This document shows, piece by piece, positions 1-30,432 of a DNA stretch of 30,432 nt. A model generated the notes under the pieces. That model was not told where the DNA came from. It did not search any database and was given only the letters and a program-made list of their open reading frames with translations. The stretch is from a plasmid. The stretch lies in the sequence record NZ_CP034172.1. One strand, given 5' to 3'. The position numbers were made by a program, and so were the translations under genes. Each line of letters starts with the position of its first letter. The first letter of the stretch is position 1.

Positions 1-1058
1 GTCGTTTTCTTTGCTAAATGACGATAGAAATTTGAAGCTCACACAAAACCGATAAGGCATTTTATAAAAATGATGTTCGGCTCGAAATTTATTTGCCCGA
101 AGGGTTTAGGAGTGTCTGAAAAAATTATTGGAACTTGTGGAGATAATTTTTTAGAAACCCAAATAAATTTTTTTGCGTGGGATTTGAATTTCTAATTTTG
201 CATTCAGAAAACAACCTACAGTTGTCGGATATTGGAAAAGTAGCAAGCGTTCTGCGTTTCCGTGAAAAGTTGGGAAAACCGATTAGGGAACTTCTCCGAA
301 AACAAAAAATTACCACACACTAAATTCAAATTCCATCGTGGGGGCTTCCCGATTTTTGCCGATCAAAAAAGGTTGGGAAAAAGAAAATTGCGGTTCTTCC
401 TTTTTTCCGAAAGAATCACATTTTTAGTAAAATTATCCTTTTGCGCAATGGGTGAAGTGTTTTCCGGTGGAAGCTTTGCTGTAACGGAAAATCACGGAAC
501 GGAAAATGTAGCGAAAGGTTTATTTTGCGTTAAGAAAATGGGATTATGAGTGAAAAATAAAATCAGAAATACTTGATAAACGGAATGTGCCATTTCTGGC
601 CAAATGGAGTGTTCAATGTTTTTCGATTTTCAAAGGACTGCAATTTTTGTTAGCGGTGGCTTTGGTCGGCTAAAAATTGGGAATGGCGGTGGCTCTCTGT
701 CGCATAATTTTTCCGGATCTGCTCCTGCAGACTTGTAAAAATTTTTTCTATGCGAACATAAAACTTATCCTGGGGGAGCTGCAGCTTCGTTTTATGCGAC
801 AAAATGAAAGGGAAAAAAATTGTGGTTCTTCCTTTTTTCCGAAAGAATCACATTTTTAGTAAAACAATCCTGTGTGAAACTAAAGGTTTGTTTTGCGTTA
901 AGAAAATGGGATTGTGAGTGAAAAACAAATCACGGTCTTTGCCAAAATTGGAATGAATCGGTCTGAAAGTTCCAAGAAATTAAATGAATTGGACTGCAAG
1001 TAGAGAGAAGGGAAATTTTGGCTATGTCCGGGATTGAAGAACCACAATTTTTTGGCGT
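1..1058. repeat. Right-hand portion of a ~1.24 kb non-coding direct repeat. Matches 19353-20412, and together with 30257-30432 it forms a second full copy that wraps across the window ends. GC-richer than the flanks and has internal ~40-45 bp duplications.
   Basis: Positions 1-1040 match 19353-20393 apart from homopolymer length differences (for example t6 vs t7 near 160/19512 and a3 vs a4 near 323/19673). No long ORF; the small ORFs listed in the track look spurious. Internal duplicates at ~379-425 and ~818-865 (ggttcttccttttttccgaaagaatcacatttttagtaaaa) and at ~508-545 and ~888-925 (ttttgcgttaagaaaatgggattRtgagtgaaaaa). Confidence 0.85.
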
Positions 1059-1067
1059 GGGAATGTG

Positions 1068-2153
1068 CTATTTACCCGACTTAGTTCTGTTATCTAGTTT
1101 GCAAAGCATTTGACAATTTTCTTCTTCGGTCTTTCCGCCATCTCTCCAAGGAACAATGTGGTCTGCTTCCATATCTGAAATATCAAAATGATTATTACAT
1201 ATTAAGCAGATTCCTTTTTGTTTATCATAAATTTTTTGTTTTACAGTATCAGAAAAAGCTCGAATTCCAAGAAATTTTTCATCTCGGGTTAAAATGTAAG
1301 GATAGATTCCGCTTTTTCTTTCTACATCATCATCAGCTATTAACATTGCTACTTCGTTTTCAATTTCATCTGTATTGTAAACTACATCTTTATATTTATT
1401 ATAAAGTTTACCCCATTCAACGCCTTTCATAAACTTTTTCCTTTTAGTGGTAAAAGTTCCGTCAACCCAAGTAATAACCTCTTGAAAATAACGCCACAAT
1501 GGGCTAGCGTTTTGGTCTTTTTGGTGCTTAGCCATATAAATATCAATATTCCCGTTGGAAATCCAATCTATGGCAGTTTCCAAGTATTCTTGACGAATGG
1601 CAGAACCTGTCAAATAATCGCTTCCAATCTGTGAAGCAACACAACCATTTTTACTAAAATATCTTTTTGCATCCGAAACCCACGAACCCGAATAAACAGC
1701 GTTTCTTAATTCCTGTTTTGTGAGTTGCTTTCCGGCAATATTGATGGTTTCAAACCATTTTAATTTTTCTTTTTCGGTTCCTTCACAAAAATAGACCATC
1801 AATTTATAATCTAAAATATGGTCTTGTTCTTCGTGTGTAAGGTTATGGAAATACTTAAAGAAGTGCGCAAAATCGCCTTCAACAAACTGGCAAATTGATA
1901 TGGTGCGTTGTTGTCCGTCTATGACCTCGTAAGTTCCATCATCACGAACTGCCCAATACATCACATTCAAAGGAAAATTACTGGTTACCGTATCAATAAC
2001 GGCTGTCCTATCTTTGTCGCCATAAATAAACTCACGTTGGTAGGGTGGGCGTATATCCAATTTGCCACCATATCCCTTTACTCCATCATCCCCATTATCC
2101 TCATAGCCCTCTGTAAGTTCTCTAATGGAAATCTCGTGTAATTCTATTTTCAT
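1068..2153 (-). CDS. DUF262 (ParB/Srx-like, DGQQR motif) plus C-terminal HNH endonuclease. Candidate restriction or defense nuclease (GmrSD/SspE-like architecture, but with a classical zinc-ribbon HNH).
   Basis: Intact 361-aa ORF. N-terminal 'VIDGQQRT' ParB-like nuclease/NTPase motif typical of DUF262. C-terminal 'CLIC…ADHIVPWRDGGKTEEENCQMLCKLDN' is an HNH/His-Me finger with CxxC…CxxC. Lies immediately downstream of a DNA methyltransferase gene. Confidence 0.75.
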   Translation of the reverse strand: MKIELHEISIRELTEGYEDNGDDGVKGYGGKLDIRPPYQREFIYGDKDRTAVIDTVTSNFPLNVMYWAVRDDGTYEVIDGQQRTISICQFVEGDFAHFFKYFHNLTHEEQDHILDYKLMVYFCEGTEKEKLKWFETINIAGKQLTKQELRNAVYSGSWVSDAKRYFSKNGCVASQIGSDYLTGSAIRQEYLETAIDWISNGNIDIYMAKHQKDQNASPLWRYFQEVITWVDGTFTTKRKKFMKGVEWGKLYNKYKDVVYNTDEIENEVAMLIADDDVERKSGIYPYILTRDEKFLGIRAFSDTVKQKIYDKQKGICLICNNHFDISDMEADHIVPWRDGGKTEEENCQMLCKLDNRTKSGK

Positions 2154-2226
2154 AGTCGTTTGTTTTTAATAAATAATCGCGCATAAATATTTTTACCATT
2201 CAATAATGGTCTTGCATCTTTTTCAC

Positions 2227-3100
2227 CTAAAAAGGTATTCCAACAATATCTGCATCATACCCTGCTGAAGCTGACAACCCTTTTATTTCAAATTGTTGCG
2301 GATTAAACTTATCTAAAAATGTAATAGGAACACCTATTACGCCTTCAAAATTAATTGGAATGTCAATTGTTTTTGATACTTCAATAGCATCATAATTATC
2401 ATACTTTGGATATTCATCATTAGAATATTTTTAAAAAGAATTAAATCTTCGTGTCTTTTTGCAATATCTAAATTAGTATACCAAAAAGACCGTGCGGTTT
2501 CATACAAAGTTCCATCTGGTTTTTTGAAATGCCTTGCGCAATTATAACCAAGCCACATCTTATTTGATTTGATTGCTTCGAATGTTTCTTTGTATGAAAT
2601 TGCATTAATATTTCCAATAATCAAAAACTTTTTATCATATTCCAATAATTGTCCGATATATTCTCGGAATAAGGAATATGGCGGGTTAGTAACTACTATA
2701 TCTGCCTGCTTTAAGAGTTCTATACACTCCTTGCTCCTAAAATCTCCATCGCCTTTCAGTTCCTTTATTCCTATTTCATCGGGATTAGGAATGTTATCGC
2801 CATTCTTATCCCCGGTATATTCCAAATAAATAGCACTTTCAGAATCGTTTTGAGAAAATAAATCTGCATTTTGATTTTTATAGCAGGTAGTAATTAGTTT
2901 TTTAAGCCCTAATTTTTCAAAATTATAGGAAAAGTAATGGAAAAAATTGCTGATTCTAGGGTCATCACAATTGCATAAAACAACCTTACCTTTAAAATGT
3001 TTTTTATAATTTTTCAGTTCATTTTCAATGTCTGATAGCTGTGTATAAAATTCATCGTTTTTTTTGGATTTTGCTTTATGTAAATTTTTTGAACCGCCAT
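2227..3100 (-). CDS. EcoRI-family (gamma-class) N6-adenine DNA methyltransferase. As given it is broken by two 1-nt homopolymer frameshifts; the ORF-track fragment 2337-2825 is its middle part.
   Basis: Translation with frames joined: MA(V)…KNLHKAKSKKNDEFYTQLSDIENELKNYKKHFKGKVVLCNCDDP…IVVTNPPYSLFREY…SFWYTNLDIAKRHEDLILFK/KYSNDEYPKYDNYDAIEVSKTIDIPINFEGVIGVPITFLDKFNPQQFEIKGLSASAGYDADIVGIPF*. It carries the NPPY catalytic motif and a DEFYTQ N-terminus like M.EcoRI. Frame breaks fall in t6 at 3085-3090 (ATG at 3098-3100 is out of frame with the body) and in the a5/t5 run near 2431-2440. Adding one base in each run restores a ~290-aa protein ending at TAG 2227-2229. Confidence 0.7.
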
Positions 3101-3155
3101 TAAATTTTTATTTAGTACAAAAGTATTAATAATTTATTTCGAATTCTAACTGCGT

Positions 3156-3300
3156 TAGTGATTGTAGCTATTGTTGGAAATCCTTTTTTATAGTCGGAAA
3201 AAACATTTTAAAAAAAGAAAGTCCGAAAAATAAATTTCAGACTGGAAAAAAAGATTGACTGCGAAAAGCACGACCGAAAGGGAACGCCCAAATTTATTAA
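3156..3300. repeat. ~145-bp 'tail' element. A second copy at 20422-20568 directly abuts the 1.24 kb repeat there. Contains the TAGTCGGAAAAAACATTT box.
   Basis: About 95% identical to 20422-20568 (gttagtgattgtagcKattgttggaaatcc…agtcggaaaaaacattt…gtccgaaaaataaatttcagactg…gattgactgcgaaaagcacgaccgaaagggaacgcccaa). In this copy the repeat and the tail are separated by the 2.1 kb nuclease+methyltransferase cassette. Confidence 0.8.
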
Positions 3301-3479
3301 GATTCCTCCTTATCTCTCAAATTAGGTTTATAAAAATTAAAATAATAAATAAATGCACCTACAATAAAGCTTCCGCCATAAAAAATACTCTTCACTATCA
3401 TTGGAAACTGCAAAAGCAAATCCAACAACATAAAAATAAATAACGCTACAAAAACTGCTATTACTACATTCTTATTCAT
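3297..3479 (-). CDS. Small membrane protein, hypothetical (two predicted TM helices).
   Basis: 60-aa ORF, hydrophobic (VVIAVFVALFIFMLLDLLL…FIVGAFIYYF). Weak support. Confidence 0.3.
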   Translation of the reverse strand: MNKNVVIAVFVALFIFMLLDLLLQFPMIVKSIFYGGSFIVGAFIYYFNFYKPNLRDKEES

Positions 3480-3489
3480 ACCTAAAAAT

Positions 3490-3705
3490 TTAATCCTTTA
3501 AAGATTCCTCTTTCTCATTAACCATATCCAAAAGCTTGTTCACATTTAACCCTTTTTTCCTCATATACATCAAATATCTAATCGCTTTCGTATTTTCAAA
3601 ATTATTTTCAATGTAATAAATACCTTTGGCGTTACAACCAATGAACTCTGTAATCTTTGGAATATTAACTTTAATATTAAATTCCTTTCTAATTTTTATT
3701 CCCAT
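3490..3705 (-). CDS. Hypothetical small basic protein.
   Basis: 71-aa ORF in a region with no overlapping competitor. No recognisable motif. Confidence 0.3.
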   Translation of the reverse strand: MGIKIRKEFNIKVNIPKITEFIGCNAKGIYYIENNFENTKAIRYLMYMRKKGLNVNKLLDMVNEKEESLKD

Positions 3706-3881
3706 TTTTCAGCTCCATAAAAATTTTATACATATCATCTAAAAATGTTCTAAAAACGCTACTCCCAAGTTTGAACATAATGCAAATTTTATTATTCAAA
3801 TATAAGTAAATTTTCATATATTTAACTTCTTATTCATTAAATATCTAACAACCAAACGATTGTAAAATAAATTTTAAAAAA

Positions 3882-4667
3882 ATGAAAAAAGGAATTTTTT
3901 TGTCTTTTTTTTTAACATTTCAACTGTTTTTATCGCAAAAAAACACGGTTGAACAAGAAAATGGAGAATACTTTATCAAGCAAGACGAAAAATTTATTAA
4001 AGGATTGAAGAGTATAAATTCGAGCAGTGAAGAATTTATTTCGGAACTCGATTTAAGCACTTATAAGAATCGTTTTGCCTATCTGAACTTCAACACCAAA
4101 TTAAGCATAGACTATAACGAGGTTACTTATTCTTATGTGAAAAAATTTCTTTCCTACCGTTGGTATCCGAAAATAATAGGTTTGTCCGTTTACTATTTTC
4201 CTCTTTTTGAAAGCAAATTGGATTACTACGGAATTCCAAGGGAATTAAAGTATTTGGCTGTAGTAGAAAGCGCACTCAATCCAAGGGCGGGAAGTTGGGT
4301 AGGGGCAAGCGGACTTTGGCAGTTTATGCCCGCAACAGGAAATCAATACGGATTAACAAAAAATCAATACATAAACACATTTTATGATCCAATGAGTAAT
4401 GCGGATGCAGGCGCAAGATACTTGAGGGATTTGTATAGAATGTATGGCGATTGGAACCTAGCGATTTCCGCATATAATTGCGGACCCGGGAACGTTAACA
4501 AAGCCATTAGGCGAGCAGGAAGTAAAAATTATTGGACTTTAAGACCCTATCTGCCTAAAGAAACGCAAGCTTATGTACCAAGTTTCATCGCTGTAAACTA
4601 TCTATTTAATTTTTACAAAGAACACAAAATGAAGCCTTCTTATTTCCGATATTCTTTTTCGATTTGA
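3882..4667 (+). CDS. Secreted lytic transglycosylase (SLT domain, VirB1-like T4SS peptidoglycan hydrolase).
   Basis: Signal peptide MKKGIFLSFFLTFQLFLSQ. SLT motifs 'AVVESALNP', 'GASGLWQFMPATG' and 'AYNCGPGNVNKAI'. Confidence 0.8.
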   Translation: MKKGIFLSFFLTFQLFLSQKNTVEQENGEYFIKQDEKFIKGLKSINSSSEEFISELDLSTYKNRFAYLNFNTKLSIDYNEVTYSYVKKFLSYRWYPKIIGLSVYYFPLFESKLDYYGIPRELKYLAVVESALNPRAGSWVGASGLWQFMPATGNQYGLTKNQYINTFYDPMSNADAGARYLRDLYRMYGDWNLAISAYNCGPGNVNKAIRRAGSKNYWTLRPYLPKETQAYVPSFIAVNYLFNFYKEHKMKPSYFRYSFSI

Positions 4668-4800
4668 AGCGCATAAAAATTAATCAGACAACGACATTTG
4701 CAAGTTTATCTAAAAAATTTGATTACAATATTTTAAAGTTTGCAAACCCACAATTTATGACGGAAACAATACCCGAAGGTTCAATTGTTTATGTTAAATA

Positions 4801-4836
4801 AAAAAAACCACTTCAAATTGAAGTGGTTTTTTTTAT
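4801..4836. terminator. Bidirectional rho-independent terminator between convergent genes.
   Basis: aaaaaaaa-CCACTTC-aaatt-GAAGTGG-tttttttt: perfect 7-bp stem flanked by an A-run and a T-run. Confidence 0.75.
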
Positions 4837-4849
4837 TTTAAAATTAATA

Positions 4850-6307
4850 TTAATTGGTACTTGCAGTAGGTGAAATGGTAACACTAACTATATCGCCAGT
4901 ATTTGCTGTTCCTGTAATTTTCATTGTTAGATTAGAAATTCCAAGGTTTGCTCCTGACAAGAAAGCAACTTGATCTCCAGTAGTTTGCCAAATGTCGTTG
5001 TTTTTCTCAAATATAGTTGCTCCGGGTGCCAGGTTCTCATTATATGTTCTAGTAACATGAACAGAAGAAGTAGATGTTGTTATATCGTAGTTTAATTCAT
5101 ATTTAACTGCTGTAATTGTGGCACTACCACCAGCAATTAATTTGAATTTTCTTGAAAAGTTTTGTTGATATACTCTCCATCCTCCGGTTGGACTTGGAAT
5201 CGAGAAATGAACATTTCCTTCTTGCGTAACAGCAGTATCGAAATATATTGGTGCGGTAACTTTAATTTCAAATGTTTTTACCTCACTTTGATTTCCAAAC
5301 TCATCTTTAACTTGAATATTGTAAACATATGTACCTGCTACTAATGCATTCACATTCATTAAAAAACCTCCGTTAGAACCTAGAGTATAATTTGTATAGG
5401 TATTGTTGGTATTCTGAATTCCATTTACGTTAGAATTTGAAGCAGAAGATATCCATGTTTTATACTGAATATTAGTATTAGGATTTACAGGAGATTGGTT
5501 GATTATTCCAGAAAAAGCCATTTGAGTATTAATAGCAATGTTAGTTGGACTATAATTCATACTTTCAATAGTGATTGTTCTAGGCAATATGTTTTGCTGT
5601 ATTTCATAGTCCTTAGTTATTGTATTGTTTTTAATTGAATAGTTTAATTTTCCTCCTCCTGCTACATTAGTTTGCAATGACGTAGTGAAATTATCAATGT
5701 TTACAATATTATACCACGTTCCTAAAGTAGCAGCTACACCGTTCAATTTAACTTGACCATCATAGGTATTGAATTTAATTTGATAACCTGTTGTAGGTTG
5801 TCCAGATCCCGGTACAATTTTCATTACATAAACTGTTTCCATCCCTTGATAAATCGGACCCGATCCGCCCACATTTGTGTGTGAAAAATCTGAAATAGAG
5901 TAAGGCAATGTAAAATCTTCCTCTTTAGATGCTCCTTTCTCATTTTTAACGGAAATTTTAAGTTCGTGATTTCCGGCTACATTTCCTATATATTCGAAAA
6001 TATTATCTTTCGTAGTAAAGGTGTATTCTTGATTTGCAACAAGAGTTTCGCCATTTAGTTTAAGAGTTCCATTTAAACTGGTAGTGAATTTAAATGAAGT
6101 AGCAATAGAAGCAAAATCATAACTTGGCTTTATGTTAAATTTGAGCTGGTTTGTTTCTCCAACTGCCTTTTCAATAAAAGTAGCGTCTCTTTCAATGGTA
6201 AATCCAAATTGACCTCCATTTTCATTTCCCCATTCGCCATCTTCACGGCAGGAATTTATCAGAAAAACTGATAAAAAAGAAATCATAATAAAAAATATTT
6301 TTTTCAT
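4850..6307 (-). CDS. Large surface lipoprotein with repeated beta-rich (Ig-like) segments, hypothetical. Last gene of the tra block.
   Basis: 485-aa ORF. Lipoprotein signal 'FLINSC'. Ser/Thr/Asn/Gly-rich beta-strand-like composition. No catalytic motif seen. Confidence 0.55.
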   Translation of the reverse strand: MKKIFFIMISFLSVFLINSCREDGEWGNENGGQFGFTIERDATFIEKAVGETNQLKFNIKPSYDFASIATSFKFTTSLNGTLKLNGETLVANQEYTFTTKDNIFEYIGNVAGNHELKISVKNEKGASKEEDFTLPYSISDFSHTNVGGSGPIYQGMETVYVMKIVPGSGQPTTGYQIKFNTYDGQVKLNGVAATLGTWYNIVNIDNFTTSLQTNVAGGGKLNYSIKNNTITKDYEIQQNILPRTITIESMNYSPTNIAINTQMAFSGIINQSPVNPNTNIQYKTWISSASNSNVNGIQNTNNTYTNYTLGSNGGFLMNVNALVAGTYVYNIQVKDEFGNQSEVKTFEIKVTAPIYFDTAVTQEGNVHFSIPSPTGGWRVYQQNFSRKFKLIAGGSATITAVKYELNYDITTSTSSVHVTRTYNENLAPGATIFEKNNDIWQTTGDQVAFLSGANLGISNLTMKITGTANTGDIVSVTISPTASTN

Positions 6308-6329
6308 AGTCGAAAATTATTAAGCGTTT

Positions 6330-6899
6330 TTAATTGATGTAATATTTTAGTCCTCCGAAAAATCCGTAATTGGATTTGGAAAATTTACTTTTCAAATCGT
6401 AATATTGGGTATAATCCAATAGTAACGACATATTTCTAAACAATACTATTTCTACTTCTGCGCTACCTGTGATTCCATAAGTGATACCGCTCACTTTAGC
6501 AGGAATCTCCGCATTATAGAGAGGGTCTCTTTGATTACCGTCATTTGCTTTTTCATAAGCTCCGTAACCTCCTAGCCAAACGTTCAAAAAAATTGGTGCA
6601 AGTCCTTCATAACTGTAACCTGCCTGTACGTTCAAACCGTATTTTTGATACGGCAAAATTTGATTATCCAAGTAGGAAACCTTGTAATCTTGATAAAATC
6701 CTTCTACCTTGCCTAAAAATCCTTTATCTCCCATTACTCGGGTATATCCTGCTTTTGCCATAAACCCACCTGTAAGGCTGTCTTTATCCATAATATAACC
6801 ATATTGGGCGTGTACTGCCGATTGGTCTTTTCTTCTACCTTGCGCATTTATTAGAACTGCAAAAAGTAACAATGTGGCAATTAAAATTTTTTCTTTCAT
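6330..6899 (-). CDS. traO: TraO-like conjugative transfer protein (predicted outer-membrane beta-barrel).
   Basis: 189 aa, signal peptide, alternating aromatic/Gly beta-strand pattern, C-terminal 'GGLKYYIN'. Sits directly after traN, as in Bacteroidetes tra operons. Confidence 0.5.
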   Translation of the reverse strand: MKEKILIATLLLFAVLINAQGRRKDQSAVHAQYGYIMDKDSLTGGFMAKAGYTRVMGDKGFLGKVEGFYQDYKVSYLDNQILPYQKYGLNVQAGYSYEGLAPIFLNVWLGGYGAYEKANDGNQRDPLYNAEIPAKVSGITYGITGSAEVEIVLFRNMSLLLDYTQYYDLKSKFSKSNYGFFGGLKYYIN

Positions 6900-6917
6900 T
6901 TTTCTATTTTTTTAATG

Positions 6918-23033: not shown

Positions 23034-23140
23034 ATTCTTTCAAATGTTTCAAGGGTGTCTGTTTCAGTTCTAACTGAAAACACGGATGTTGTTGGTTTAA
23101 CCTTCATTGTATTACATATTTGTAACACAAAGGTAACAAA

Positions 23141-23176
23141 AAAAGTAATACTCTATGTATTACTCTTGTTTTTTTT
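23141..23176. terminator. Bidirectional rho-independent terminator downstream of the resolvase gene.
   Basis: aaaaaaa-GTAATAC-tctatg-TATTACTCTTG-tttttttttt. Confidence 0.65.
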
Positions 23177-23216
23177 TTAATTATTGATAATTACATTTAA
23201 CGACAATATAATATCG

Positions 23217-23780
23217 TTATTTAAGATTAATAATTTTGTAAAAAGTAGTTTTACTACCGATATTATATGCTTTCATAATTTCTTCTACTGGGAGTTTCCG
23301 ACTTTCATAGGAGGCTTTAACCAAGGGTGCAATTTTTATATATTTTTCAGTCATTCCTTTAGGTCTTCCGCCCATTTTTCCTCTTGCCCTAGCAGATTTC
23401 AAACCTGCATTAGTTCTCTCTATCAAAACATTTCTTTCGTGTTCAGCTAAAACACAAAATATTTGGAAAATCAATTTACCACTTGCAGAACCTGTATCTA
23501 TATTTTCAGTAATCGATTTGAAATTTATTCCTTTTTCGTTTAATTCATTTACAAACTGAATTAAACCTACGGTAGTTCTGCCTACTCTATCCAATCTCCA
23601 AACGGTTAAAGTATCGCCTTTTCTAATAAAATTTAGAAGTTGATTTAATTGAGGCTTTTCAGATTTCACTCCACTAACTTTATCAACAAAAATTTTTTCA
23701 ATTCCTAAATTTTTTAAAGCATCGGTTTGTAAATCTAAATTTTGTTCAAACTTGCTTACTCTTGCATATCCAATTAACAT
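23217..23780 (-). CDS. Small serine recombinase (resolvase/invertase family; likely plasmid multimer resolvase).
   Basis: 187 aa. 'MLIGYARVSKFEQNLDLQ' carries the catalytic-Ser motif, followed by '…GDTLTVWRLDRVGRTT' and a C-terminal HTH. Confidence 0.85.
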   Translation of the reverse strand: MLIGYARVSKFEQNLDLQTDALKNLGIEKIFVDKVSGVKSEKPQLNQLLNFIRKGDTLTVWRLDRVGRTTVGLIQFVNELNEKGINFKSITENIDTGSASGKLIFQIFCVLAEHERNVLIERTNAGLKSARARGKMGGRPKGMTEKYIKIAPLVKASYESRKLPVEEIMKAYNIGSKTTFYKIINLK

Positions 23781-23973
23781 AATTACACTTTATTCATCTT
23801 GAACAAATTTAATGTAATTTGAATTAATGTACAAGGAAAATGAACAAAGAATTTTAAATAAAATTTATTTTATTAGAATTCCTTTCCAGTACATAAAACC
23901 GACCGTTTTTGAAAACTTTTTTCTTTTGGCGCAACTTTTCTTTTTTTTTTCATTACCAAATGGAAAAATATTT

Positions 23974-24013
23974 TTAAATGTTTTTTCCGACTATAAAAAT
24001 TGTCTGAAAGACA
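23974..24013. promoter_or_regulatory. Candidate res / recombinase binding site.
   Basis: Perfect inverted repeat TGTCTgaaAGACA (24001-24013), resembling resolvase half-sites (TGTCYnnTA). Immediately preceded by an inverted copy of the TAGTCGGAAAAAACATTT box (23976-23999). About 200 bp upstream of the recombinase start. Confidence 0.4.
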
Positions 24014-24160
24014 AATAAAAGCAGGTGAGCTAAAGGCGAACTCCTTTTAAGGGGCTTAGCCCACTATAAAACAAATGCTTTTTAAAATCAATAGTTTTTT
24101 AATTACATTGCTTTTTAGCGTTCGCAAACCCTAATGTTAATCAGCTTTTACAAAAATAAT

Positions 24161-24441
24161 AGTGTAGGTGTATACTTATTAAGAGTGTAGGTATATCCTT
24201 ATAATCTACTCTTAAACGGTGTAGGTCTATACTGTATATTCAATTAAAGAGTGTAGGTCTATACTTCACTATCAGTGTAGGTCTATACTTAAGCGGTGTA
24301 CCTTTATACTTAAACGGTGTACCTTTATACTTATACGGTGTAGGTCTATACTTAAACGGTGTACCTTCATACTTAAATGGTGTAGGTGTATGCTTAAACG
24401 GTGTATGTCTGTACTTAATTAGTGTAGTGCTATAATTAATT
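24161..24441. repeat. Iteron array: about 12 direct repeats, consensus GGTGTAGGTCTATACTTAAAC, with eight units in strict 21-bp phasing. Probable vegetative replication origin.
   Basis: Read directly. Units start at 24161, 24184, 24218, 24250, 24274, 24295, 24316, 24337, 24358, 24379, 24400 and 24421. Contiguous with no spacers. AT-rich stretch on the 5' side. Adjacent to the Rep gene. Confidence 0.85.
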
Positions 24442-24486
24442 AAGTACTTTTCAGTTCTGTAAACACTTTCTCATACAGAAAACCAC

Positions 24487-25545
24487 CTAAATTCTTAATT
24501 TCTTCTCCAGCTTCATTATTGAACCAGATCTTTTGCCTATAAACTTAGATTCCTTGTTATCATAATGCTGGTTAAAGGTAACGGCTTTGTTAAATCTATT
24601 AAACATATTTTCCTGCCCTATCCTCTGCAATAAAAATAATATCTGACTTTCAGTCAAGCCATAGGCTAAAAACGATTTTAATGCTGTTTGATGCACTTCC
24701 GAGAGATTGTTTATGTCGAGGCGTTTTTGAAATTTAAAGTGTAAATTAGTAATCTTTCTACCAACTTTAACGGTTTCATAGGAAATATGGGAAATATCTA
24801 ATTTCTCGTTCGAATTGAAATCGTTTATTGCAGGATCCAGGAACACTCTTTTAAATTCTGACCAACGAGCAAGATATTCTACTCTTTCATAATCGGGAGA
24901 AATTTCTTTTGTGTCAAATAAAAACTTCAGTTGCAGTTGTTTTGTAGTTTCACTCTTGTTCTTTTCGTTTTTATAAACAATAAACCCCAACAAAACCTTT
25001 AGCTCTTCAAGAGAAACCCTGTAAATTCCAGTTGCTTTGAATTGGGAAAGCAATTCAAACAACTTTTTTCTTTTGTCGCCCTTTAAGTCAATAATACTAC
25101 TCTCAATTTGGGTATACTGAACCCTTGTTTTGTTAGCATATTCTAAAGCGTGTTTTTCATAAAAGAAAATCTTACCCCATTTAGCAAATCTTACAATAAA
25201 TTCATTGGCATCTTCATCACTTACAGAAACACTATCAATAACATTAAAAAACTCGGTGATCTTTGTTTGCGTGTTGTAGAAAACTCCGTTAATGTGTATC
25301 AAGCCTGAACATATTTCCAAAAGTTCAGAAACTGAATAGAAACTGTTTTTCTTTACATTCTTATACTCTAGAAACTTATTGTAATTAAAGATTATTTCTT
25401 CCTCTGGGTTGGGATCACGAAAATTTATTAACGTTTGCAGATAGTAGATTATATCTTTCTGCATTTCCGTAACTCCCCTCATTACGCTCTGCGTAAAGAA
25501 ATTGGATTGTAATAAATAGTTTGAGTTTTTATCTGTGGACTTCAT
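24487..25545 (-). CDS. repB: Plasmid replication initiator (RepB / Rep_3-like, iteron-binding).
   Basis: 352 aa. N-terminal 'NYLLQSNFFTQSV…MQKDIIYYLQTLIN' resembles the Rep_3 initiator N-terminus. Directly adjacent to the iteron array. Confidence 0.65.
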   Translation of the reverse strand: MKSTDKNSNYLLQSNFFTQSVMRGVTEMQKDIIYYLQTLINFRDPNPEEEIIFNYNKFLEYKNVKKNSFYSVSELLEICSGLIHINGVFYNTQTKITEFFNVIDSVSVSDEDANEFIVRFAKWGKIFFYEKHALEYANKTRVQYTQIESSIIDLKGDKRKKLFELLSQFKATGIYRVSLEELKVLLGFIVYKNEKNKSETTKQLQLKFLFDTKEISPDYERVEYLARWSEFKRVFLDPAINDFNSNEKLDISHISYETVKVGRKITNLHFKFQKRLDINNLSEVHQTALKSFLAYGLTESQILFLLQRIGQENMFNRFNKAVTFNQHYDNKESKFIGKRSGSIMKLEKKLRI

Positions 25546-25787
25546 TTGGAGAATGGTTTATAGTTGAATACTGAAACTGAATTTTTTTCATCAAAAATCC
25601 TGTAATAATTATCTGCTTTCGTGTCGGAAAAATAATCTTCCTTATGGATGTATATTTTAATCCATTTCCAATTTTGTAGCTTACCTGCTAAATCGGATGG
25701 CGTATAAACTTTGTGATAAAAGCACGTTTTTTTAGTGTCGGTAAAATACACAACACAAAAAAATCCTTTACTTTCTCTTGTTTTCAT
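25542..25787 (-). CDS. Hypothetical small protein translationally coupled to rep.
   Basis: 81-aa ORF, ATGA overlap with the rep start. Confidence 0.4.
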   Translation of the reverse strand: MKTRESKGFFCVVYFTDTKKTCFYHKVYTPSDLAGKLQNWKWIKIYIHKEDYFSDTKADNYYRIFDEKNSVSVFNYKPFSK

Positions 25788-25869
25788 TTTTTTTGTATAT
25801 TTGGGTTAGGAAAAAACATTTATAAAATGTTTGAAGGCAACTGAATTTATTTGGTTGTCTTTTTTATTT

Positions 25870-26367
25870 TTAACTCACTTTACTTAACAATTTAAAATCT
25901 TTGTGAAAATATTTTTCCTCGTCTTTATTCCAAAAATCTAGCTGTCGGGAAATAGCATCCTTATAAGAACTTTCCCACGCCCATTTCGGAACCGTAACTT
26001 TATAAAGTTTATTTTCTTCTTCGTCTTTTCCCACTTCCAAATCAATTATTTTGCTGTTTGGAATCCAAACGAAAAGTTTCTGTGCGTTCTCGTTAAATAG
26101 GACTTCCACAATTAATTTTGTGGCTTTATCGCCTTTATCATAGGCAGAACTTTCGACCACTACGCTTTCTTCTTCGGGTGGGTTTTGAAACTCTTTTAAT
26201 TTATCTGTCCAAAATTCAGAATCTACCGAAAGGGAATTTCCTTTGAGTTCAATTTTAGAAAGTGGAAGCCAAAAAGTTTCTTCCTGTGCTGTTTCTTCAA
26301 CGTGGGTTTTAATTAAGATTGCTTTATCGCTCTTTCTTAATTCTTGATATTTTGCGAATGTTTTCAT
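25870..26367 (-). CDS. Hypothetical acidic protein.
   Basis: 165-aa ORF with no competing frame. Confidence 0.45.
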   Translation of the reverse strand: MKTFAKYQELRKSDKAILIKTHVEETAQEETFWLPLSKIELKGNSLSVDSEFWTDKLKEFQNPPEEESVVVESSAYDKGDKATKLIVEVLFNENAQKLFVWIPNSKIIDLEVGKDEEENKLYKVTVPKWAWESSYKDAISRQLDFWNKDEEKYFHKDFKLLSKVS

Positions 26368-26403
26368 ATTGTGGTTTTTTTACTTGTTTTTACAATGGTG
26401 TTT

Positions 26404-26901
26404 TTATTTTAAACTTCCCTTAAAATCTTTCAATAACTGCTCTATAAAATCATCTTTAGTGTAGTTTGTAGAAAGAAAGTCACCGTCTTTATTGATATTC
26501 TTTGAATACATAAAGTCGTAAATAAATTCCCTATCAACAGCCGAAATTCTACAGCTTGTAAAAACACGTTCTGTCTTGGTAGAATTAGACCGTTTTCCTC
26601 TGCGAGTTGGAATAACTCCGTTAGGTCGTAAAGGCAAATCTTTATATTTATTTCGCATTATCTCTATACCATCCCTAATCACATCCGAAACGCAATAATG
26701 AAAGTCATCTTTTCTTTTTATAGCTTCAATCTCTCTCAATTGTTCAACGACTTGCATTTGAAGTAAAAAGGAGAAAGTAACATTATTTATTAATGAAGTT
26801 TCTTCGATCTGTTGTTTAGGTTCTTGGTGTGGTTGCTCCTGTAACTCCGCTACCTTTCCCCACGCTTCCGCCATTTTCTCTGCTGCACTTTTATTTTTCA
26901 T
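26404..26901 (-). CDS. Hypothetical protein immediately downstream of parA, translationally coupled. Possible partition adaptor or TraB-like partner.
   Basis: 165-aa ORF, ATGA overlap with the parA stop at 26901. Confidence 0.45.
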   Translation of the reverse strand: MKNKSAAEKMAEAWGKVAELQEQPHQEPKQQIEETSLINNVTFSFLLQMQVVEQLREIEAIKRKDDFHYCVSDVIRDGIEIMRNKYKDLPLRPNGVIPTRRGKRSNSTKTERVFTSCRISAVDREFIYDFMYSKNINKDGDFLSTNYTKDDFIEQLLKDFKGSLK

Positions 26902-27655
26902 TACTTTATCTTTTTAATTATTTCTTTATATAAATTCTTGAAATCTAATGAAGCCCGGCTATTGGGTGCAATTTCAAAAATTGTTTTGCCTTTTTTCTTG
27001 GCTTCATTTACATTAATATCTTGCCTAATATATGTTTTAAAAAGTGCGTCTTTCACAACGGAATTTTGAATTTCAAAATAATACTTTTTAAAATCTTTTG
27101 AGCGCACCATTACTTTGTTAAAGAAAAACCCCAAATACTCGAATTTTAGACCGTATTTCGCCTTTAATGACATAATAGCAGGGTATAACTTGTAAACTCC
27201 CGAAATAGAGAATTCTTCCGCTTCTATAGGGCTAATAACATAATCACTAGCAAATAGGGCTATTTCAGCTAAAGAAAGCTTATTGGTAAGCGGTTTGCTC
27301 GGCGGACAATCTATAATTACATAATCAAAAATTCCGTCAATGGCTTCAATACTTGTTTTCAATGAATTTTGATTGAAATCTAAATCTTCCAAAAGCTCCG
27401 AACCCTCTAGAACATAGATATTGTTAAAATTTCCCTTCTCTGCAAATTTTATATTCCCTTTTTTCTCCAAAAATTCTGCAACGGTAAAATCTTCTCCCTC
27501 GACCTTTAAACCTAACGATAAATTGCATTGACTGTCAAATCAATAAGAAGTACCTTTTTATTTTTTGAAGCGAAACAATCGCTTAAATGAATGCTTGTGG
27601 TTGTTTTCCCCACTCCGCCTTTCTGTGTTAATATTGTGAAAATTTTAGTTTTCAT
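26901..27655 (-). CDS. parA: ParA/Soj-type partition ATPase (TraA-like). Interrupted by one 1-nt frameshift; the ORF-track piece 26901-27470 lacks the Walker A box.
   Basis: ATG at 27653-27655 gives [40 protein letters not shown] (deviant Walker A 'KGGVGKTT'). Shifting frame near 27533-27540 continues [28 protein letters not shown]…, which is the listed ORF. Confidence 0.8.
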
Positions 27656-27696
27656 ATTTATTTATATATTGTAGTTAAAAATTAAATGAAGAAAAA

Positions 27697-27975
27697 TTAT
27701 TTTTTCTTTTCGATTCTCTGTTTTTCAAGTTTTTTTGAATAATCTTTGAAAAAAACACTAGAAAAAAGCATACTCACAACAATCAACCCTATCACAATTA
27801 ATATTAATAAGCATCCCATATTTAAGGTCTGTAAAAAACATCCTTCATTCCTTTTTACGATAATTTTTGGCTGTACTGGAGATTGCATCGAAACAATGGG
27901 ATTTCCACAATAAGGACACGTTAAAGCCTTATCGGAAATTTCTTTATTACATTCTGTGCAGTTAATAAGTGCCAT
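27697..27975 (-). CDS. Zinc-ribbon membrane protein, hypothetical.
   Basis: 92 aa. N-terminal CxxC…CxxC 'CTECNKEISDKALTCPYCGN', then a TM helix 'GCLLILIVIGLIVVSMLF' and a basic tail. Confidence 0.5.
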   Translation of the reverse strand: MALINCTECNKEISDKALTCPYCGNPIVSMQSPVQPKIIVKRNEGCFLQTLNMGCLLILIVIGLIVVSMLFSSVFFKDYSKKLEKQRIEKKK

Positions 27976-27988
27976 ATCTTAAATTTTT

Positions 27989-28100
27989 TATGTTCGCATA
28001 AAATTGCTCCAAAAACATTTGCAGAGCTGTTTTATGTTCGCATCAATTAAAACGATATCGGCAGTTCCGGAACGGATCATATAATATCGTGCGAACATCA
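27989..28100. promoter_or_regulatory. Operator or centromere-like repeat cluster upstream of the 27975->par operon.
   Basis: TATGTTCGCATA at 27989-28000, TATGTTCGCATCA at 28033-28045 and the inverted cGTGCGAACATCA at 28088-28100, about 44 bp apart. Between them are the palindromes CGATATCG and TTCCGGAA. The exact 12-mer also occurs, inverted, inside the 1.24 kb repeat (749-760 and 20100-20111). Confidence 0.55.
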
Positions 28101-28103
28101 ACT

Positions 28104-28346
28104 TTATCTTTTCCGATTGTTTATAAAATCAAAAAGAATTTCTGAATTTTGTTCATCCAAATTTCCTATAAAGTCTAGCCAAGCTAAAGAATTATTATTA
28201 ATTCTGTACTCCTTATACTTATTTTTCTTATCAATTAAATGCCCTAGCATATAATCTTTAACTTTTCCTTTATAAATATTTTCTACTTCATCAATATTAG
28301 TATTATCAATAAAGACTATAATTTTGTGCATTATAATTGATTTCAT
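28104..28346 (-). CDS. Hypothetical small protein.
   Basis: 80-aa ORF, second gene of a two-gene leftward unit. Confidence 0.4.
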   Translation of the reverse strand: MKSIIMHKIIVFIDNTNIDEVENIYKGKVKDYMLGHLIDKKNKYKEYRINNNSLAWLDFIGNLDEQNSEILFDFINNRKR

Positions 28347-28379
28347 TTTATAAGTTTTTTAGCATTAAAAAAGTTTCTT

Positions 28380-28613
28380 TCAGCAAATCGAATTTATGCT
28401 GCTGTTTTTTTTATCATTAATTAATTCGGTACTGATAATTTTCAGTTCATTTCTTTCTGCTTCAAGTTCCAAATATTTTACGAAAAGTGTTTTTACTACT
28501 TCGTTATTGGAACTCAAACCAAACTTTTTCTTAATCTTGGAGAATGCTTCTCCCTGTGCTTCTTCTATATCCCTAACGTAAATAGTTGTCGGAAAATCAT
28601 TAATTACAGGCAT
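28380..28613 (-). CDS. Hypothetical small protein.
   Basis: 77-aa ORF, preceded by the conserved promoter-like 40-mer. Confidence 0.4.
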   Translation of the reverse strand: MPVINDFPTTIYVRDIEEAQGEAFSKIKKKFGLSSNNEVVKTLFVKYLELEAERNELKIISTELINDKKNSSINSIC

Positions 28614-28637
28614 ATATTTTTATGTTTATTGTTACAA

Positions 28638-28676
28638 ATTTAAATTAACTTTTCCAAATATACGCAACTTTTTAAA
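28638..28676 (-). promoter_or_regulatory. Second copy of the conserved promoter-like 40-mer (see 13655-13701).
   Basis: acaaatttaaattaacttttccaaatatacgcaacttt. The coding-strand reading contains the TATATTTG -7 box about 25 bp from the ATG at 28613. Confidence 0.5.
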
Positions 28677-28815
28677 ATTATTTTAATATTTATTTATAGA
28701 TTGTAGTTAAATATATTTGAATTTTTTCACTTATTTATTTGGTTATCGAGAATACGTTTTTTTATCGGAGGTAAGTTTTTTGGCGGAATTTTTGAACAAA
28801 TATTGTGACAAAAAA

Positions 28816-28850
28816 ACTGTAAAAAAGCCACTTTTAAAGTGGCTTTCAAT
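28816..28850 (-). terminator. Rho-independent terminator downstream of ssb.
   Basis: AGCCACTTTtaAAGTGGCT perfect stem. On the minus strand it is followed by TTTTTT (the aaaaaa at 28811-28816 on the plus strand). Confidence 0.7.
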
Positions 28851-29197
28851 TATTCTTCCGCTACTTCAACATCTTTATTGTTTCCATCAAGGAAAGTAAC
28901 TTTTTGCGCTACGATTTCAGTAATGTAATGTTTAGCGTTTTCTTTTTCGTAATTGCGTGTCTGCAATTTTCCTGTAATGGCTACCAAAGAACCTTTTTTG
29001 ATATACTTTTCGCAATTCTCGGCAGTCTTATTGTTCACTACTATATTATGCCATTCGGTTTTGGTTTCCTTTTGTCCTTCGGCATTAGTATAATGCTCGT
29101 TTGTTGCTAGAGAAAATGAGCCTTTTTTTCCGCCATTCTCAAAATCTGTGATTTTTACATCATCGCCTAATCTTCCGATTAAATTTACTTGGTTCAT
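28850..29197 (-). CDS. ssb: Single-stranded DNA-binding protein (short plasmid-type SSB, OB fold).
   Basis: 115 aa. 'MNQVNLIGRLGDDVKI…FSLATNEHYTNAEGQKETKTEWHNIVV…LVAITGKLQTRNYE' is the canonical SSB OB-fold pattern, with an acidic C-terminus. Confidence 0.85.
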   Translation of the reverse strand: MNQVNLIGRLGDDVKITDFENGGKKGSFSLATNEHYTNAEGQKETKTEWHNIVVNNKTAENCEKYIKKGSLVAITGKLQTRNYEKENAKHYITEIVAQKVTFLDGNNKDVEVAEE

Positions 29198-29214
29198 AAT
29201 AATTGTATTTAAGA

Positions 29215-29427
29215 TTAATATTTGCTGTTTTTTCTATTTTCTTCCCAAATATCATTATTGGAAAGGGTTTCAAAAGATTCTGTAATTTGTTCATCAGAAT
29301 TTTCAACGTTTTCTAAATAGATTTTAAGGTTTCCGTTTGGATATTCTCTGACTGAATAAATTTTATAAATTATTCCTGTTGGAATGTAGATAAATTCTTT
29401 TCCTATTAAATTAGATGTGTTCGACAT
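29215..29427 (-). CDS. Hypothetical small protein.
   Basis: 70-aa ORF. Confidence 0.4.
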   Translation of the reverse strand: MSNTSNLIGKEFIYIPTGIIYKIYSVREYPNGNLKIYLENVENSDEQITESFETLSNNDIWEENRKNSKY

Positions 29428-29732
29428 TATGTAATTATTATTTAGTTAATAAATTTAGTTAAAATACGATTAACCTATATATCGTGAGGTTTTAAATTTT
29501 ACTTCTTTCTAAACAAATTTTTAGCCATTTCAAAAGTCGTAAATATTTTTAAGTTCGGGCTTTACAAATAGAATAAGTTTCCAAAGAACCCTGTTCCAAA
29601 TGAATTTTAAAAATTTCATTATTAAAAGAATGATGAAGAAACTTATTACAACGGCTATTGCCTTTAATGTGAAATCTTCCATAATTATAATATTTTAAAT
29701 ATTTAGTTAAATATTGTAGTTAAATATAAAAT

Positions 29733-30020
29733 TATCTTTCACTTGGAAAAAACAGGGTTGAATTTTCAAACCAAACTTTAACTTCATCAATCTTGATATT
29801 TTCAGAAGTATAGAAATTTGTAAAATTTTGTTTAGGTTTCCGTCTTGAAGTTCCAAAGTAAATTTGTCATTTTCAACTCTGCGAAAAATCCAAACTTGAA
29901 ATTCTTCTTCTGATACTAAAAAACATTCTGCATCGAGTGTATAATTTGTAAAAGAAATTCCAAATTGTTTTCCTGCAAGTAATGGGAGAGGGTAGTGGTC
30001 ATAAAAAAATTTTTCATAGT
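29733..30020 (-). CDS. Hypothetical protein (~95 aa), interrupted by a 1-nt homopolymer frameshift.
   Basis: ATG at 30018-30020 gives MKNFFMTTTLSHYLQENNLEFLLQIIHSMQNVF*. Adding one base to the A/T run near 29922-29928 continues LVSEEEFQVWIFRRVENDKFTLELQDGNLNKILQ… to a stop near 29733. Absent from the ORF track because it is split. Confidence 0.3.
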
Positions 30021-30028
30021 GGTAAATT

Positions 30029-30238
30029 TTAATGGGTTAAAATAAATTGTAGTGTGTGTGGTTCAGAATTTTTGATGGCTTGAATAAATGGGAGATATTC
30101 ATAGGCAAAAAGGACTTCGCATAGTTCCTTAAAATCTCTGTAGCCGTGCGCTTGAATTTCATTTAAACAACTTTGATAAGTGTTAAAAATCGGTTCAAGG
30201 TTCAAAAGGTCTTTTTTTAGTTCGTCTGAATTTTTCAT
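30029..30238 (-). CDS. Hypothetical small protein.
   Basis: 69-aa ORF. Upstream region similar to the ardC upstream region (TTGTAGTTAA box). Confidence 0.4.
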   Translation of the reverse strand: MKNSDELKKDLLNLEPIFNTYQSCLNEIQAHGYRDFKELCEVLFAYEYLPFIQAIKNSEPHTLQFILTH

Positions 30239-30256
30239 AATTTATATATTTAGTTA

Positions 30257-30432
30257 AATATTGTAGTTAATTAAGTATTTAATTCTTTTATTTATTCGGT
30301 ATCGAGGAAACGTGTTTTTTTTTAAAGTGGTAGTTTTTTGTTTTCGGGGAATAGTTTTCCCTTCGTGTTTTTTCGGCTTTTTTCGGGAATGTCAAAGAAC
30401 GCTCTGCTTTTCTTTATTCGTATAACTGAGGT
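30257..30432. repeat. Left-hand portion of the wrap-around copy of the ~1.24 kb repeat (continues at position 1).
   Basis: Identical to 19176-19352. Window end plus window start reproduces 19345-19370 exactly (tataactgaggt|gtcgttttctttgc). Confidence 0.85.

Follow-up and report, generated by a model that had tools for sequence, protein, structure and literature searches.

The plasmid record NZ_CP034172.1 (30,432 nt, G+C 31.5%; its whole length is called the window here) holds two copies of a non-coding repeat, each built around a long hairpin that stands just ahead of an operon. Judged by its sequence and its relatives, the window is very probably the whole circular plasmid of Chryseobacterium taklimakanense (Weeksellaceae), its record having been opened arbitrarily within one of the repeat copies. 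The plasmid itself is ordinary: it belongs to a known family of conjugative plasmids in Weeksellaceae, its sequence was already deposited, and establishing its completeness chiefly tidies its annotation; the repeat is the useful lead. With about even confidence we propose that the repeats are the first recognized single-strand (transferred-strand, T-strand) promoters of Bacteroidota, i.e., strand-specific hairpins of 290-470 nt which would rebuild the -33/-7 elements of sigma-A, occur as paired and concertedly evolving copies in Flavobacteriia leading regions, and would serve the zygotic expression of ArdC, SSB and DUF6876. The explanation that fits best overall is a complete plasmid with paired hairpin cassettes, the proposed single-strand promoter mechanism included, and in this we have good confidence.

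Record ends and circularity

Direct repeats tie both ends of the window to one internal region. In a repeat search, 30233-30432 paired with 19152-19351 (spacing of 11,081, start to start), and 1-174, 147-324 and 322-621 paired with partners after 19352 at spacings of 19,351, 19,352 and 19,353; the junction is thus in register with the internal copy (copy B), with position 30432 corresponding to 19351 and position 1 to 19352. When the last 400 nt plus the first 1500 nt were aligned with gaps to 18951-20900, a 333-nt block (30246..146 versus 19165..19497) crossed the junction with 2 mismatches and was followed by a 1-nt gap, 175 identical nt, a second 1-nt gap and 743 nt with 4 mismatches near the far edge. 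Copy A runs from 30229 across the record origin to 1064, and the two copies (~1.27 kb, ~99.3% identity) differ by two 1-nt indels, both in homopolymers (T7/T6 at B 19498 and A4/A3 at B 19674), and by ~7 mismatches, mostly at the edges. The first-pass annotation had described the joined ends as reproducing, base for base, an internal copy at 19176-20412: the copy is real, and the wording is right for the junction itself but not for the repeat in full, whose extent is slightly longer (19150-20417) and whose similarity resumes at 20421-20564, the partner of 3153-3297 beyond a 2.1-kb insertion in copy A (92-97% identity). An ungapped comparison over 19176-20412 gave 611 mismatches, because the two indels shift the alignment.

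The ends of an arbitrary linear piece lying inside a 1.27-kb repeat would be in such register by chance in about 1 of 1,270 cases. Moreover, a metagenomic relative (locus L162, positions 1-3297 of contig Ga0102832_1000062, 310,039 bp) is continuous over the junction, its positions 2508-2700 matching window 30237-30432 and its positions 2701-3264 matching window 1-562; judged against copy B and against L162 (88-90% identity here), the record ends abut without overlap or gap. The Rep protein was identical (100%, full length) to AZI21518.1/WP_124785692.1, a replication initiation protein of C. taklimakanense, and since the NCBI record that bears it equals the window at 30,432 bp, the window is a complete deposited record, and it begins and ends where the record does rather than at an arbitrary cut.

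Nearest plasmids were taken from a copy of PLSDB without the window's own record. The window's ArdC shared 69-70% identity with its counterparts on pA2BH1 (44 kb) and on the plasmids of strains SNU WT5 and SNU WT7 and of C. oryzae, all closed circles. Against genome contigs, an ArdC alignment gave, among the matches listed, only generic ArdC proteins (27-35% identity; Proteobacteria and others), and a single ArdC query found no relative there.

Plasmid pA2BH1 (Chryseobacterium sp. ANT_H2B, NZ_MN657149.1, 44,000 bp, circular) has the same backbone order as the window round the whole circle (proteins 37-81% identical): ArdC, mobilization accessory gene, DUF5712/MobB relaxase, coupling protein, VirB2-like protein, TraG, three open reading frames (ORFs), TraM, DUF4138/TraN, TraO-position gene, TraQ-like protein, SLT (lytic transglycosylase, on the opposite strand), small ORF, cargo site, DUF6876, ParA, recombinase and back to ArdC. 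It too carries two hairpin copies, at the same two places. Unlike the window, it has a 12-kb defence island at the site filled in the window by only a GmrSD-HNH gene plus a methylase fragment, a different initiator candidate (no tblastn match to the window's Rep), hairpin copies that are 90% identical (99.3% in the window) and intact backbone genes. The plasmid of Chryseobacterium joostei DSM 16927 (NZ_CP033927.1, 30,209 bp, circular) resembles the window in size, in its secretion block (TraQ, TraO, DUF4138, TraM, TraG), in SLT, SSB, DUF6876 and ParA, and in two hairpin copies on the template strand of its SSB and DUF6876 operons; it differs in a 1,330-aa relaxase with MobC, a short RepB, the lack of ArdC and hairpins without exact TAnnTTTG. 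In both plasmids the stretch that matches the window's junction (SSB/DUF6876 operon, hairpin, cargo/terminator, small ORF, SLT) is continuous DNA.

The first-pass reading of the window as a complete circular plasmid of ~30.4 kb cut inside a repeat is borne out by the in-register ends, the complete record and the gene order of closed relatives across the junction, as is its preference for an autonomous plasmid over an integrated conjugative transposon or integrative and conjugative element (ICE): an iteron replicon is present, and the backbone, compared with Flavobacteriia plasmids carrying tra genes, is colinear round the whole circle with closed Chryseobacterium plasmids. Also as that annotation had stated, no integrase or transposase domain was found in 50 ORFs, all repeat-internal ORFs of at least 60 aa included, and no tRNA was found in a scan of the window. 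The unassigned stretches are all too short to conceal an integrase or transposase gene, and the sole recombinase in the window is a 187-aa resolvase. What would mark an integrative element, i.e., an integration recombinase, an attachment site and flanking host DNA, was not found within the window. Conjugative transposons of the CTnDOT type (Bacteroides) share with the window the TraG, TraM, TraN/DUF4138 and TraQ domains, a MobB-type relaxase and a MobC-type coupling protein; they carry a tyrosine integrase and no replicon, whereas the window has Rep with iterons plus ParA and no integrase found in the 50 ORFs.

It is very unlikely that the window is part of a larger replicon (an ICE, a chromosome or a megaplasmid with at least three repeat copies) whose matching ends are accidental or an assembly break. 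Bacteroidetes conjugative transposons do share this secretion system type, and a cassette relative with a DUF6876 gene does start a 310-kb metagenome contig beside an IS256-like transposase; yet the record equals the window, its ends are in exact register, integrase, transposase and tRNA were not found there, an iteron replicon and parA are present, and gene order agrees with that of closed plasmids round the entire circle. The 30.4-kb circle might instead be a false or transient join, made by the assembler or as a cointegrate, in which an 11.1-kb rep/par/ssb circle and a 19.4-kb tra/mob/ardC circle met at the cassette. This would account for direct repeats of 99.3% identity that divide the circle into precisely these two functional modules, and recombination between the repeats would resolve the circle into both smaller ones. 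We give this equally little credence: in pA2BH1 and the C. joostei plasmid a single closed circle unites the two modules and the two hairpin copies, the tra/mob half is without a replicon of its own, and the copies differ at ~9 positions and hence were distinguished by the assembly. For the complete plasmid, the same near-identical repeats predict a recombination route which would split it into a replicon circle (11.1 kb) and a transfer circle (19.4 kb).

A conserved, strand-specific hairpin

Along the direction of transcription (minus strand), the cassette consists of a terminator module, ~730 nt with two small hairpin units, the long hairpin and a 72-nt leader, and is followed by a start codon, which is that of ardC for copy B and that of the orf69-DUF6876-orf70-SSB operon for copy A; the hairpin lies 72 nt upstream of both ardC and orf69, and each cassette heads an operon of establishment genes. 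What kind of element the repeat is had not been recognized in the first-pass annotation. Folded as single-stranded DNA (ssDNA), hairpin B formed an almost unbranched stem-loop of -94.6 kcal/mol (z = -9.7). Hairpins of 290-470 nt were found 30-130 nt before the first gene in nine other plasmids from Chryseobacterium spp., Elizabethkingia and Myroides, with z between -3.5 and -9.7 overall. The gaps that contain them were non-coding, measured 480-1,100 nt and lay ahead of ArdC, JAB-ArdC or hyp-SSB-ArdC-DUF6876 operons; the Chryseobacterium and Elizabethkingia copies were related in sequence, and the Myroides hairpin was structurally similar. As a rule a plasmid has two copies.

The plus strand, which is the operon template, was more stable than the minus strand in all 10 cases, and across the 10 hairpins 104 G.T pairs stood against 2 A.C single mismatches. 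This asymmetry rules out selection on the mRNA-sense strand, and with it a 5' untranslated region structure in the ardC mRNA; it also speaks against an inverted duplication decaying neutrally. Furthermore, in an alignment of seven sequences (alignment A2, mean column identity 61%), RNAalifold retained the long hairpin; of its 93 pairs, 43 had compensatory double changes. Over these pairs 90.3% of the cells were paired, versus 78.4 +/- 1.0 in shuffles (none of 500 reached the observed value) and 37-54% with slid partners; the 43 double-change pairs compared with 21.6 +/- 2.8 in shuffles and 11-17 with slid partners.

A profile search found two hairpin copies each in pA2BH1 (90% identical over 499 nt) and in the C. 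joostei plasmid (99.3% over 593 nt), every copy lying upstream of an operon on its template strand. Thus the paired repeat is a family trait that evolves in concert and is not peculiar to this record or its assembly. We consider the hairpin, with good confidence, a selected single-strand structure. It matched no Rfam family. A metagenome scan with the pattern TGAGGNNTCN{1,4}TTTTCTNTGC was unspecific and found the element in 4 of 120 loci (L162, L156, L137 and L121). L162, the closest cassette relative (88-92% identical), lies at the start of its contig, where within the 3.3 kb compared the cassette adjoins an IS256/Mutator-family transposase and a DUF6876 gene; the contig may represent an integrated element, a megaplasmid or a chimera.

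One block of the hairpin, ATGTCAAAGAAC at 19306-19317 (30387-30398 in copy A), varies hardly at all among the homologs and accounts for a conserved bulge of 3 nt on the 5' arm; it is a candidate protein-recognition site and, read on the minus strand, contains TTGACA. The repeat was also considered as a decayed gene and this was rejected: no internal ORF had a Pfam match, and relatives leave the region unannotated.

A candidate single-strand promoter

Bacteroidetes sigma-A promoters, as in Bacteroides and Flavobacterium, have a -7 box of the form TAnnTTTG. Both hairpins of the window carry a motif of this type in the distal (3') arm (Table 1). In hairpin B, 7 of the 8 bases of the -7 box are paired, and the box lies within an invariant block of alignment A2. 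Of 17 hairpin instances, 14 had an exact TAnnTTTG on the sense strand of the gene-distal arm, paired to a conserved 'TGCTAAAT' with a T.T mismatch; ~17 nt upstream of the box there was a T-run ending in G or A, which read TTTG in the window, L162, Elizabethkingia and C. balustinum. The hairpin motifs account for two of the three full TTTG-N16-22-TAnnTTTG matches in the window, and no minus-strand TAnnTTTG occurs anywhere between the terminator and ardC. A simple scan for sigma-70 -35/-10 boxes recovered the boxes neither here nor in the Frpo elements of plasmid F, and was therefore uninformative.

During conjugation of F and RP4, relaxase genes enter the recipient last. If the same holds here, as in other conjugative systems, the plus strand would be the transferred T strand, the very one on which the structure is selected and which is the template for nearly all genes. 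In the C. joostei plasmid, which has a different relaxase and a different location of the origin of transfer (oriT), the hairpin is again on the operon template strand. By this polarity, the T strand would enter the recipient 5'-first through ardC and hairpin B, with hairpin A following ~13 kb later. On entry the single-stranded hairpin would fold, and folding would rebuild a duplex Bacteroidetes sigma-A promoter (T-run/TTTG, ~17 nt, TAnnTTTG) whose non-template strand is the distal arm. Host RNA polymerase could then transcribe along the stem and on into ardC or the SSB operon at a time when no complementary strand exists, and the transcript may additionally prime complementary-strand synthesis. 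Once the DNA is double-stranded, the -7 box would face away from the ardC and SSB operon genes.

By analogy with plasmid F we lean, if only somewhat, toward the hairpin acting as a single-strand promoter or priming signal. In that role it would probably activate genes for anti-restriction and DNA protection before the plasmid, newly arrived in its host, becomes double-stranded.

In F, the Frpo1 and Frpo2 elements are promoter-box stem-loops that precede ygeA and ssb; they form direct-repeat copies (92% identical) ~5 kb from each other, and transconjugants need them for early expression (PMC9849209, PMC11541004). As a positive control, the script used for the window found both as 317-nt hairpins on the T strand, 46 nt upstream of ygeA and ssb. 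The window's hairpins resemble these elements (also termed ssi; plasmid F, ColIb-P9) in several respects: i) a long hairpin with imperfect pairing (F, 317 nt; this family, 290-470 nt) stands tens of nucleotides before a leading-region operon; ii) the genes downstream are ssb or ygeA in F and the SSB operon or ardC here; iii) the hairpin is on the template, transferred strand (here by the relaxase-last rule), with promoter boxes (candidate ones here) inside the stem; iv) there are two similar direct-repeat copies kilobases apart (92% identity in F, 99.3% here). Unlike Frpo, the window's candidate boxes are a Bacteroidetes -7 TAnnTTTG with a T-run/TTTG at about -33 and not a sigma-70 -35/-10 pair, and the strand asymmetry is much stronger, with many G.T pairs; the promoter role here would follow by analogy. 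On these likenesses, the hairpin cassette is a credible Bacteroidota counterpart of Frpo.

Bacteroidota are not mentioned in PMC9849209 or PMC11541004, nor in the passages of PMC12282955 that deal with Frpo or single-stranded promoters, and among the titles and abstracts listed for Frpo together with Bacteroid* we found no report of a Bacteroidota Frpo. Proteobacterial single-strand promoters time the expression of anti-defence genes during conjugation, and the hairpin offers a concrete, alignable and testable candidate for such promoters outside Proteobacteria. If the proposal is true, early single-strand transcription in this phylum, whose promoter architecture differs, either evolved independently or dates back much further than has been assumed. 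The hairpin would also give a handle on how plasmids and conjugative elements of Bacteroidota establish themselves in new hosts, and its motif could locate leading regions and predict transfer polarity in a phylum whose oriT sites are poorly known.

Weighing the readings of the hairpin

Several observations count against the proposed promoter or against the plasmid as a working transfer unit. The -33 element is TTTA and not TTTG in several homologs, and three instances are without an exact -7 box; matches to the full -33/-7 motif in the window are no more numerous than chance would give (3 found, 4.3 expected), so that the argument leans on conservation and placement. For transfer polarity and the nick site, the general relaxase-last rule is presumed. 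No similarity to F's Frpo was found (blastn with word size 7 gave chance matches of 11-21 nt, and the hairpin profile run with nhmmer matched nothing in the F leading region). Covariation and many G.U-type pairs would fit a plus-strand RNA equally well. One cassette relative stands on a 310-kb contig by an IS256-like transposase, and the cassette is thus not restricted to small plasmids. Finally, tblastn with pA2BH1 proteins revealed frameshifts in seven backbone genes as counted, those named being traG/virB4, traK, traN, SLT, DUF6876 and parA; because these genes are frameshifted as deposited, the self-transmissibility of this exact molecule is not assured.

The main alternative to a single-strand promoter is that the hairpin encodes all or part of a structured plus-strand RNA, either a large non-coding RNA or an antisense regulator transcribed from the -7 box at 19545-19552. 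The covariation and G.U-type pairs are typical of such RNAs, in double-stranded DNA the -7 box would drive plus-strand transcription, and a weak terminator-like stem on that strand lies at 19692-19704. A transcript from the -7 box, however, would hold only part of the 3' arm, too little for the covarying hairpin to form; to the left of the 5' arm there is no consensus promoter, no Rfam family matches, and F's Frpo shows the same fixed position and orientation before leading-region operons, the same pairing of copies and the same geometry, so we judge this alternative unlikely, if worth keeping in view. More doubtful still is a close variant, a pure priming site for complementary-strand synthesis (ssi/sso-like) that makes no mRNA for the downstream genes. 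Frpo was originally described as a promoter and primer-RNA site (Masai and Arai 1997, as cited in PMC11541004), strand and orientation dependence is typical of sso elements, and the small extra hairpins of the cassette could be priming sites; a mere primer would nevertheless not need a constant spacing of 30-130 nt before the operon start in a reading-in orientation. The idea of a functionless foldback or MITE-like (miniature inverted-repeat transposable element) mobile element, or of a duplication remnant that folds through its two inverted halves, is rejected on covariation and the missing target-site duplication. A long inverted repeat in two copies per plasmid would suit such an element, yet no target-site duplication was seen at the hairpin edges, position and orientation relative to ArdC/SSB operons are constant across plasmids averaging 61% identity (mean column identity of A2), compensatory changes preserve the pairing, invariant sequence blocks are present, and the 104 to 2 asymmetry of G.T over A.C is not expected from neutral decay; we regard it as extremely improbable.

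Replicon, transfer genes and cargo

Table 1. Features of the 30,432-nt window, with strand and the basis of each assignment
Feature	Position	Strand	Basis or remark
Repeat copy A, first part	30229..30432	+	aligned to 19150-19351; continues across record origin
Repeat copy A, second part	1..1064	+	aligned to 19352-20417; two 1-nt indels, 4 mismatches
Repeat copy B, non-coding 1.27-kb cassette directly upstream of ardC	19150..20417	+	no Pfam match in its ORFs, no Rfam match
Long hairpin B (~470 nt, ~186 pairs)	19222..19691	+	ssDNA fold, covariation, G.T versus A.C asymmetry; candidate single-strand (T-strand) promoter for ardC
Long hairpin A, outer 5' arm (record origin inside the arm)	30303..30432	+	homologous to 19222-19351; folds like copy B
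Long hairpin A, rest of 5' arm, loop and 3' arm	1..338	+	candidate single-strand promoter for orf69-DUF6876-SSB operon
Promoter motif TTTG-N17-TAATTTTG in distal (3') arm of hairpin B; -7 box 19545-19552	19524..19552	+	pattern search
Same promoter motif TTTG-N17-TAATTTTG in hairpin A; -7 box 193-200	172..200	+	
Two smaller conserved hairpin units, ~95 nt (direct repeats D5, D7: 19734-19914, 20166-20282)	19725..20295	+	repeat search, folds
Copy A equivalents of D5/D7 hairpin units	381-561, 813-929		
Terminator module B, after sigma-r4/alpha-CTD gene; intrinsic terminator 20510-20487	20421..20564	-	terminator scan; repeats D9, D10, D12
Terminator module A, copy of 20421-20564	3153..3297	-	repeat search; weak Flavo-1 match on + strand
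ArdC-like anti-restriction protein (ArdcN and zincin peptidase domains), first gene after hairpin B	18178..19149	-	Pfam
Operon downstream of hairpin A: orf69 30029-30238, DUF6876 29735-30017 (2 frameshifts), orf70, SSB 28850-29197	28850..30238	-	Pfam, tblastn, L162 and L212
Cargo: GmrSD_N+HNH nuclease 1068-2153, truncated EcoRI-like methylase 2337-2825	1068..2825	-	Pfam
Lytic transglycosylase (SLT)	3882..4798	+	Pfam, tblastn with pA2BH1 protein; frameshift near 4610-4658
Bacteroidetes-type type IV secretion system (T4SS) block	4850..13625	-	Pfam; colinear with pA2BH1 at 45-75% amino-acid identity
TraQ-like 4850-6307, TraO-like 6330-6899, TraN/DUF4138 6918-7602 (frameshift)	within T4SS block	-	
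TraM 7614-8684, TraK-position 8701-9367 (2 frameshifts), TraJ-position 9369-10175, orf161	within T4SS block	-	
TraG/VirB4 10673-13107 (frameshift near 12880), orf87, VirB2-like orf96	within T4SS block	-	
Mobilization block: MobC-like coupling protein 13735-15378, MobB-family relaxase 15390-16799, two small accessory ORFs	13735..17337	-	Pfam, NCBIfam
Candidate oriT region between mob operon and ardC	17338..17628	.	short inverted repeats, C-rich tract; from position
Sigma-r4/alpha-CTD (C-terminal domain) fusion 20560-21444, SNase-type nuclease 21466-22020, small ORFs, serine resolvase 23217-23780	20560..23780	-	Pfam, NCBIfam
Replicon: ~12 iterons of 21-22 bp (24162-24440), Rep_3-like initiator (24487-25545)	24162..25545	-	repeat search, Rep3_C domain
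ParA	26922..27655	-	Pfam, tblastn; frameshift near 27536; intact in relative L212

Nearly all genes of the window are on the minus strand. Rep (352 aa) had a Rep3_C (WH2) match with E = 2e-9 and partial similarity to the RepM and RepE models, below those models' full-length cut-offs; it is labelled a replication initiation protein by NCBI and a RepB-family initiator in UniRef, and its 57 homologs are mostly named from Chryseobacterium. The iteron unit is GTGTAGGTCTATACTTAAACG-like, and the array lies 47 nt from the rep stop codon. The transfer genes TraJ, TraK and TraO were assigned by position and are without a Pfam match, even in the intact pA2BH1 homologs. The relaxase (MobB_relaxase/DUF5712 match, E = 4e-42) and the MobC-like coupling protein (T4SS-DNA_transf) are both intact, and the arrangement of ardC, gap and mob genes is common to related plasmids.

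The replicon, the T4SS and the mobilization block had each been called full. The RepB-like initiator, iterons and resolvase were found, and the T4SS and mobilization genes are all present in order; but ParA, traG, traK and traN are frameshifted in the deposited sequence, so that, as far as the sequence tells, the T4SS and ParA are full in gene order and not demonstrably intact. The frame changes lie at 4610-4658 (SLT), ~7337 (traN), ~8850 and 9113-9149 (traK), ~12880 (traG), ~27536 (parA) and 29818-29925 (DUF6876). Most of these sites are at A5-6 or T5 runs, and the two indels between repeat copies are likewise in A/T homopolymers; the frameshifts may therefore be long-read homopolymer errors, and could equally be real decay. 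In the relative L212 (76-87% identical) ParA and DUF6876 are intact, which shows only that intact forms exist in relatives.

MOB-suite calls several of the related plasmids L001, L002, L003/L007, L006 and L008-L010 (Chryseobacterium and Elizabethkingia; PLSDB typing) 'non-mobilizable'. A relaxase is annotated in five of the seven (L001, L002, L003/L007, L006 and L009), with a coupling protein besides in L001, L002 and L007 and a TraG-type ATPase in L002 and L007; the stretches fetched for L008 and L010 contained no mobilization gene. Bacteroidota transfer systems appear to be under-called by standard typing.

The cargo sits between cassette A and its terminator module, i.e., at the site of the pA2BH1 defence island, and this site looks like a cargo hot spot. 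The nuclease is of the DUF262 type, and the EcoRI-like adenine methylase matches profile positions 103-249 only. Just upstream of cassette B in transcription order lies the gene for a 294-aa protein with sigma-70 region 4 (residues 137-174) and an RNA polymerase alpha C-terminal domain (residues 222-281); pA2BH1 has a plasmid-borne sigma-70-family gene too. Such a fusion is unusual and could retarget host RNA polymerase.

Other cassette modules and short repeats

The D5/D7 hairpin units are, like the long hairpin, more stable on the plus strand, and the 'GCGTTAAGAAAATGGGATT' block of D7 is conserved in three related plasmids; these units may be priming sites or further single-strand signals. 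The only Rfam match in the window was to Flavo-1 (RF01705) at 3144-3279 (29 bits, E = 0.023, with a 53-nt insertion), below the gathering score of 42 bits; the stretch contains the minus-strand intrinsic terminator, and nine related plasmid loci had no Flavo-1 match. In an Elizabethkingia anophelis plasmid (L010), 676-707 on the minus strand matched the DUF805b RNA motif (RF02914) with 37.9 bits, which exceeds the gathering score; this match has no bearing on the hairpin.

Three families of short repeats were also seen. A ~42-nt motif, ATATTTAnTTAnATATTGTAGTTAA, occurs five times (19151-19192, 27640-27681, 28672-28713, 29685-29726 and 30232-30273) and may be a shared 5' leader or operator. Three of its copies are directly upstream of minus-strand gene starts (ardC, parA and orf69), the copy at 28672-28713 is ~59 nt upstream of the orf77 start, and that at 29685-29726 is just past DUF6876 and more than 250 nt upstream of the orf70 start. 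The 32-nt sequence TTTTTTATAGTCGGAAAAAACATTTTAAAAAA occurs four times (3184-3215, 17523-17554 and 20453-20484 on the plus strand, and 23967-23999 inverted): two copies adjoin cassette terminator stems, a third falls in the candidate oriT gap, and the inverted copy stands between the resolvase gene and the iteron array. Just upstream of the tra operon (orf96) and of orf77, a 52-nt repeat (13657-13708 and 28634-28685; 88% identity) carries two minus-strand TAnnTTTG boxes, and its copies are likely ordinary double-strand promoters under common control.

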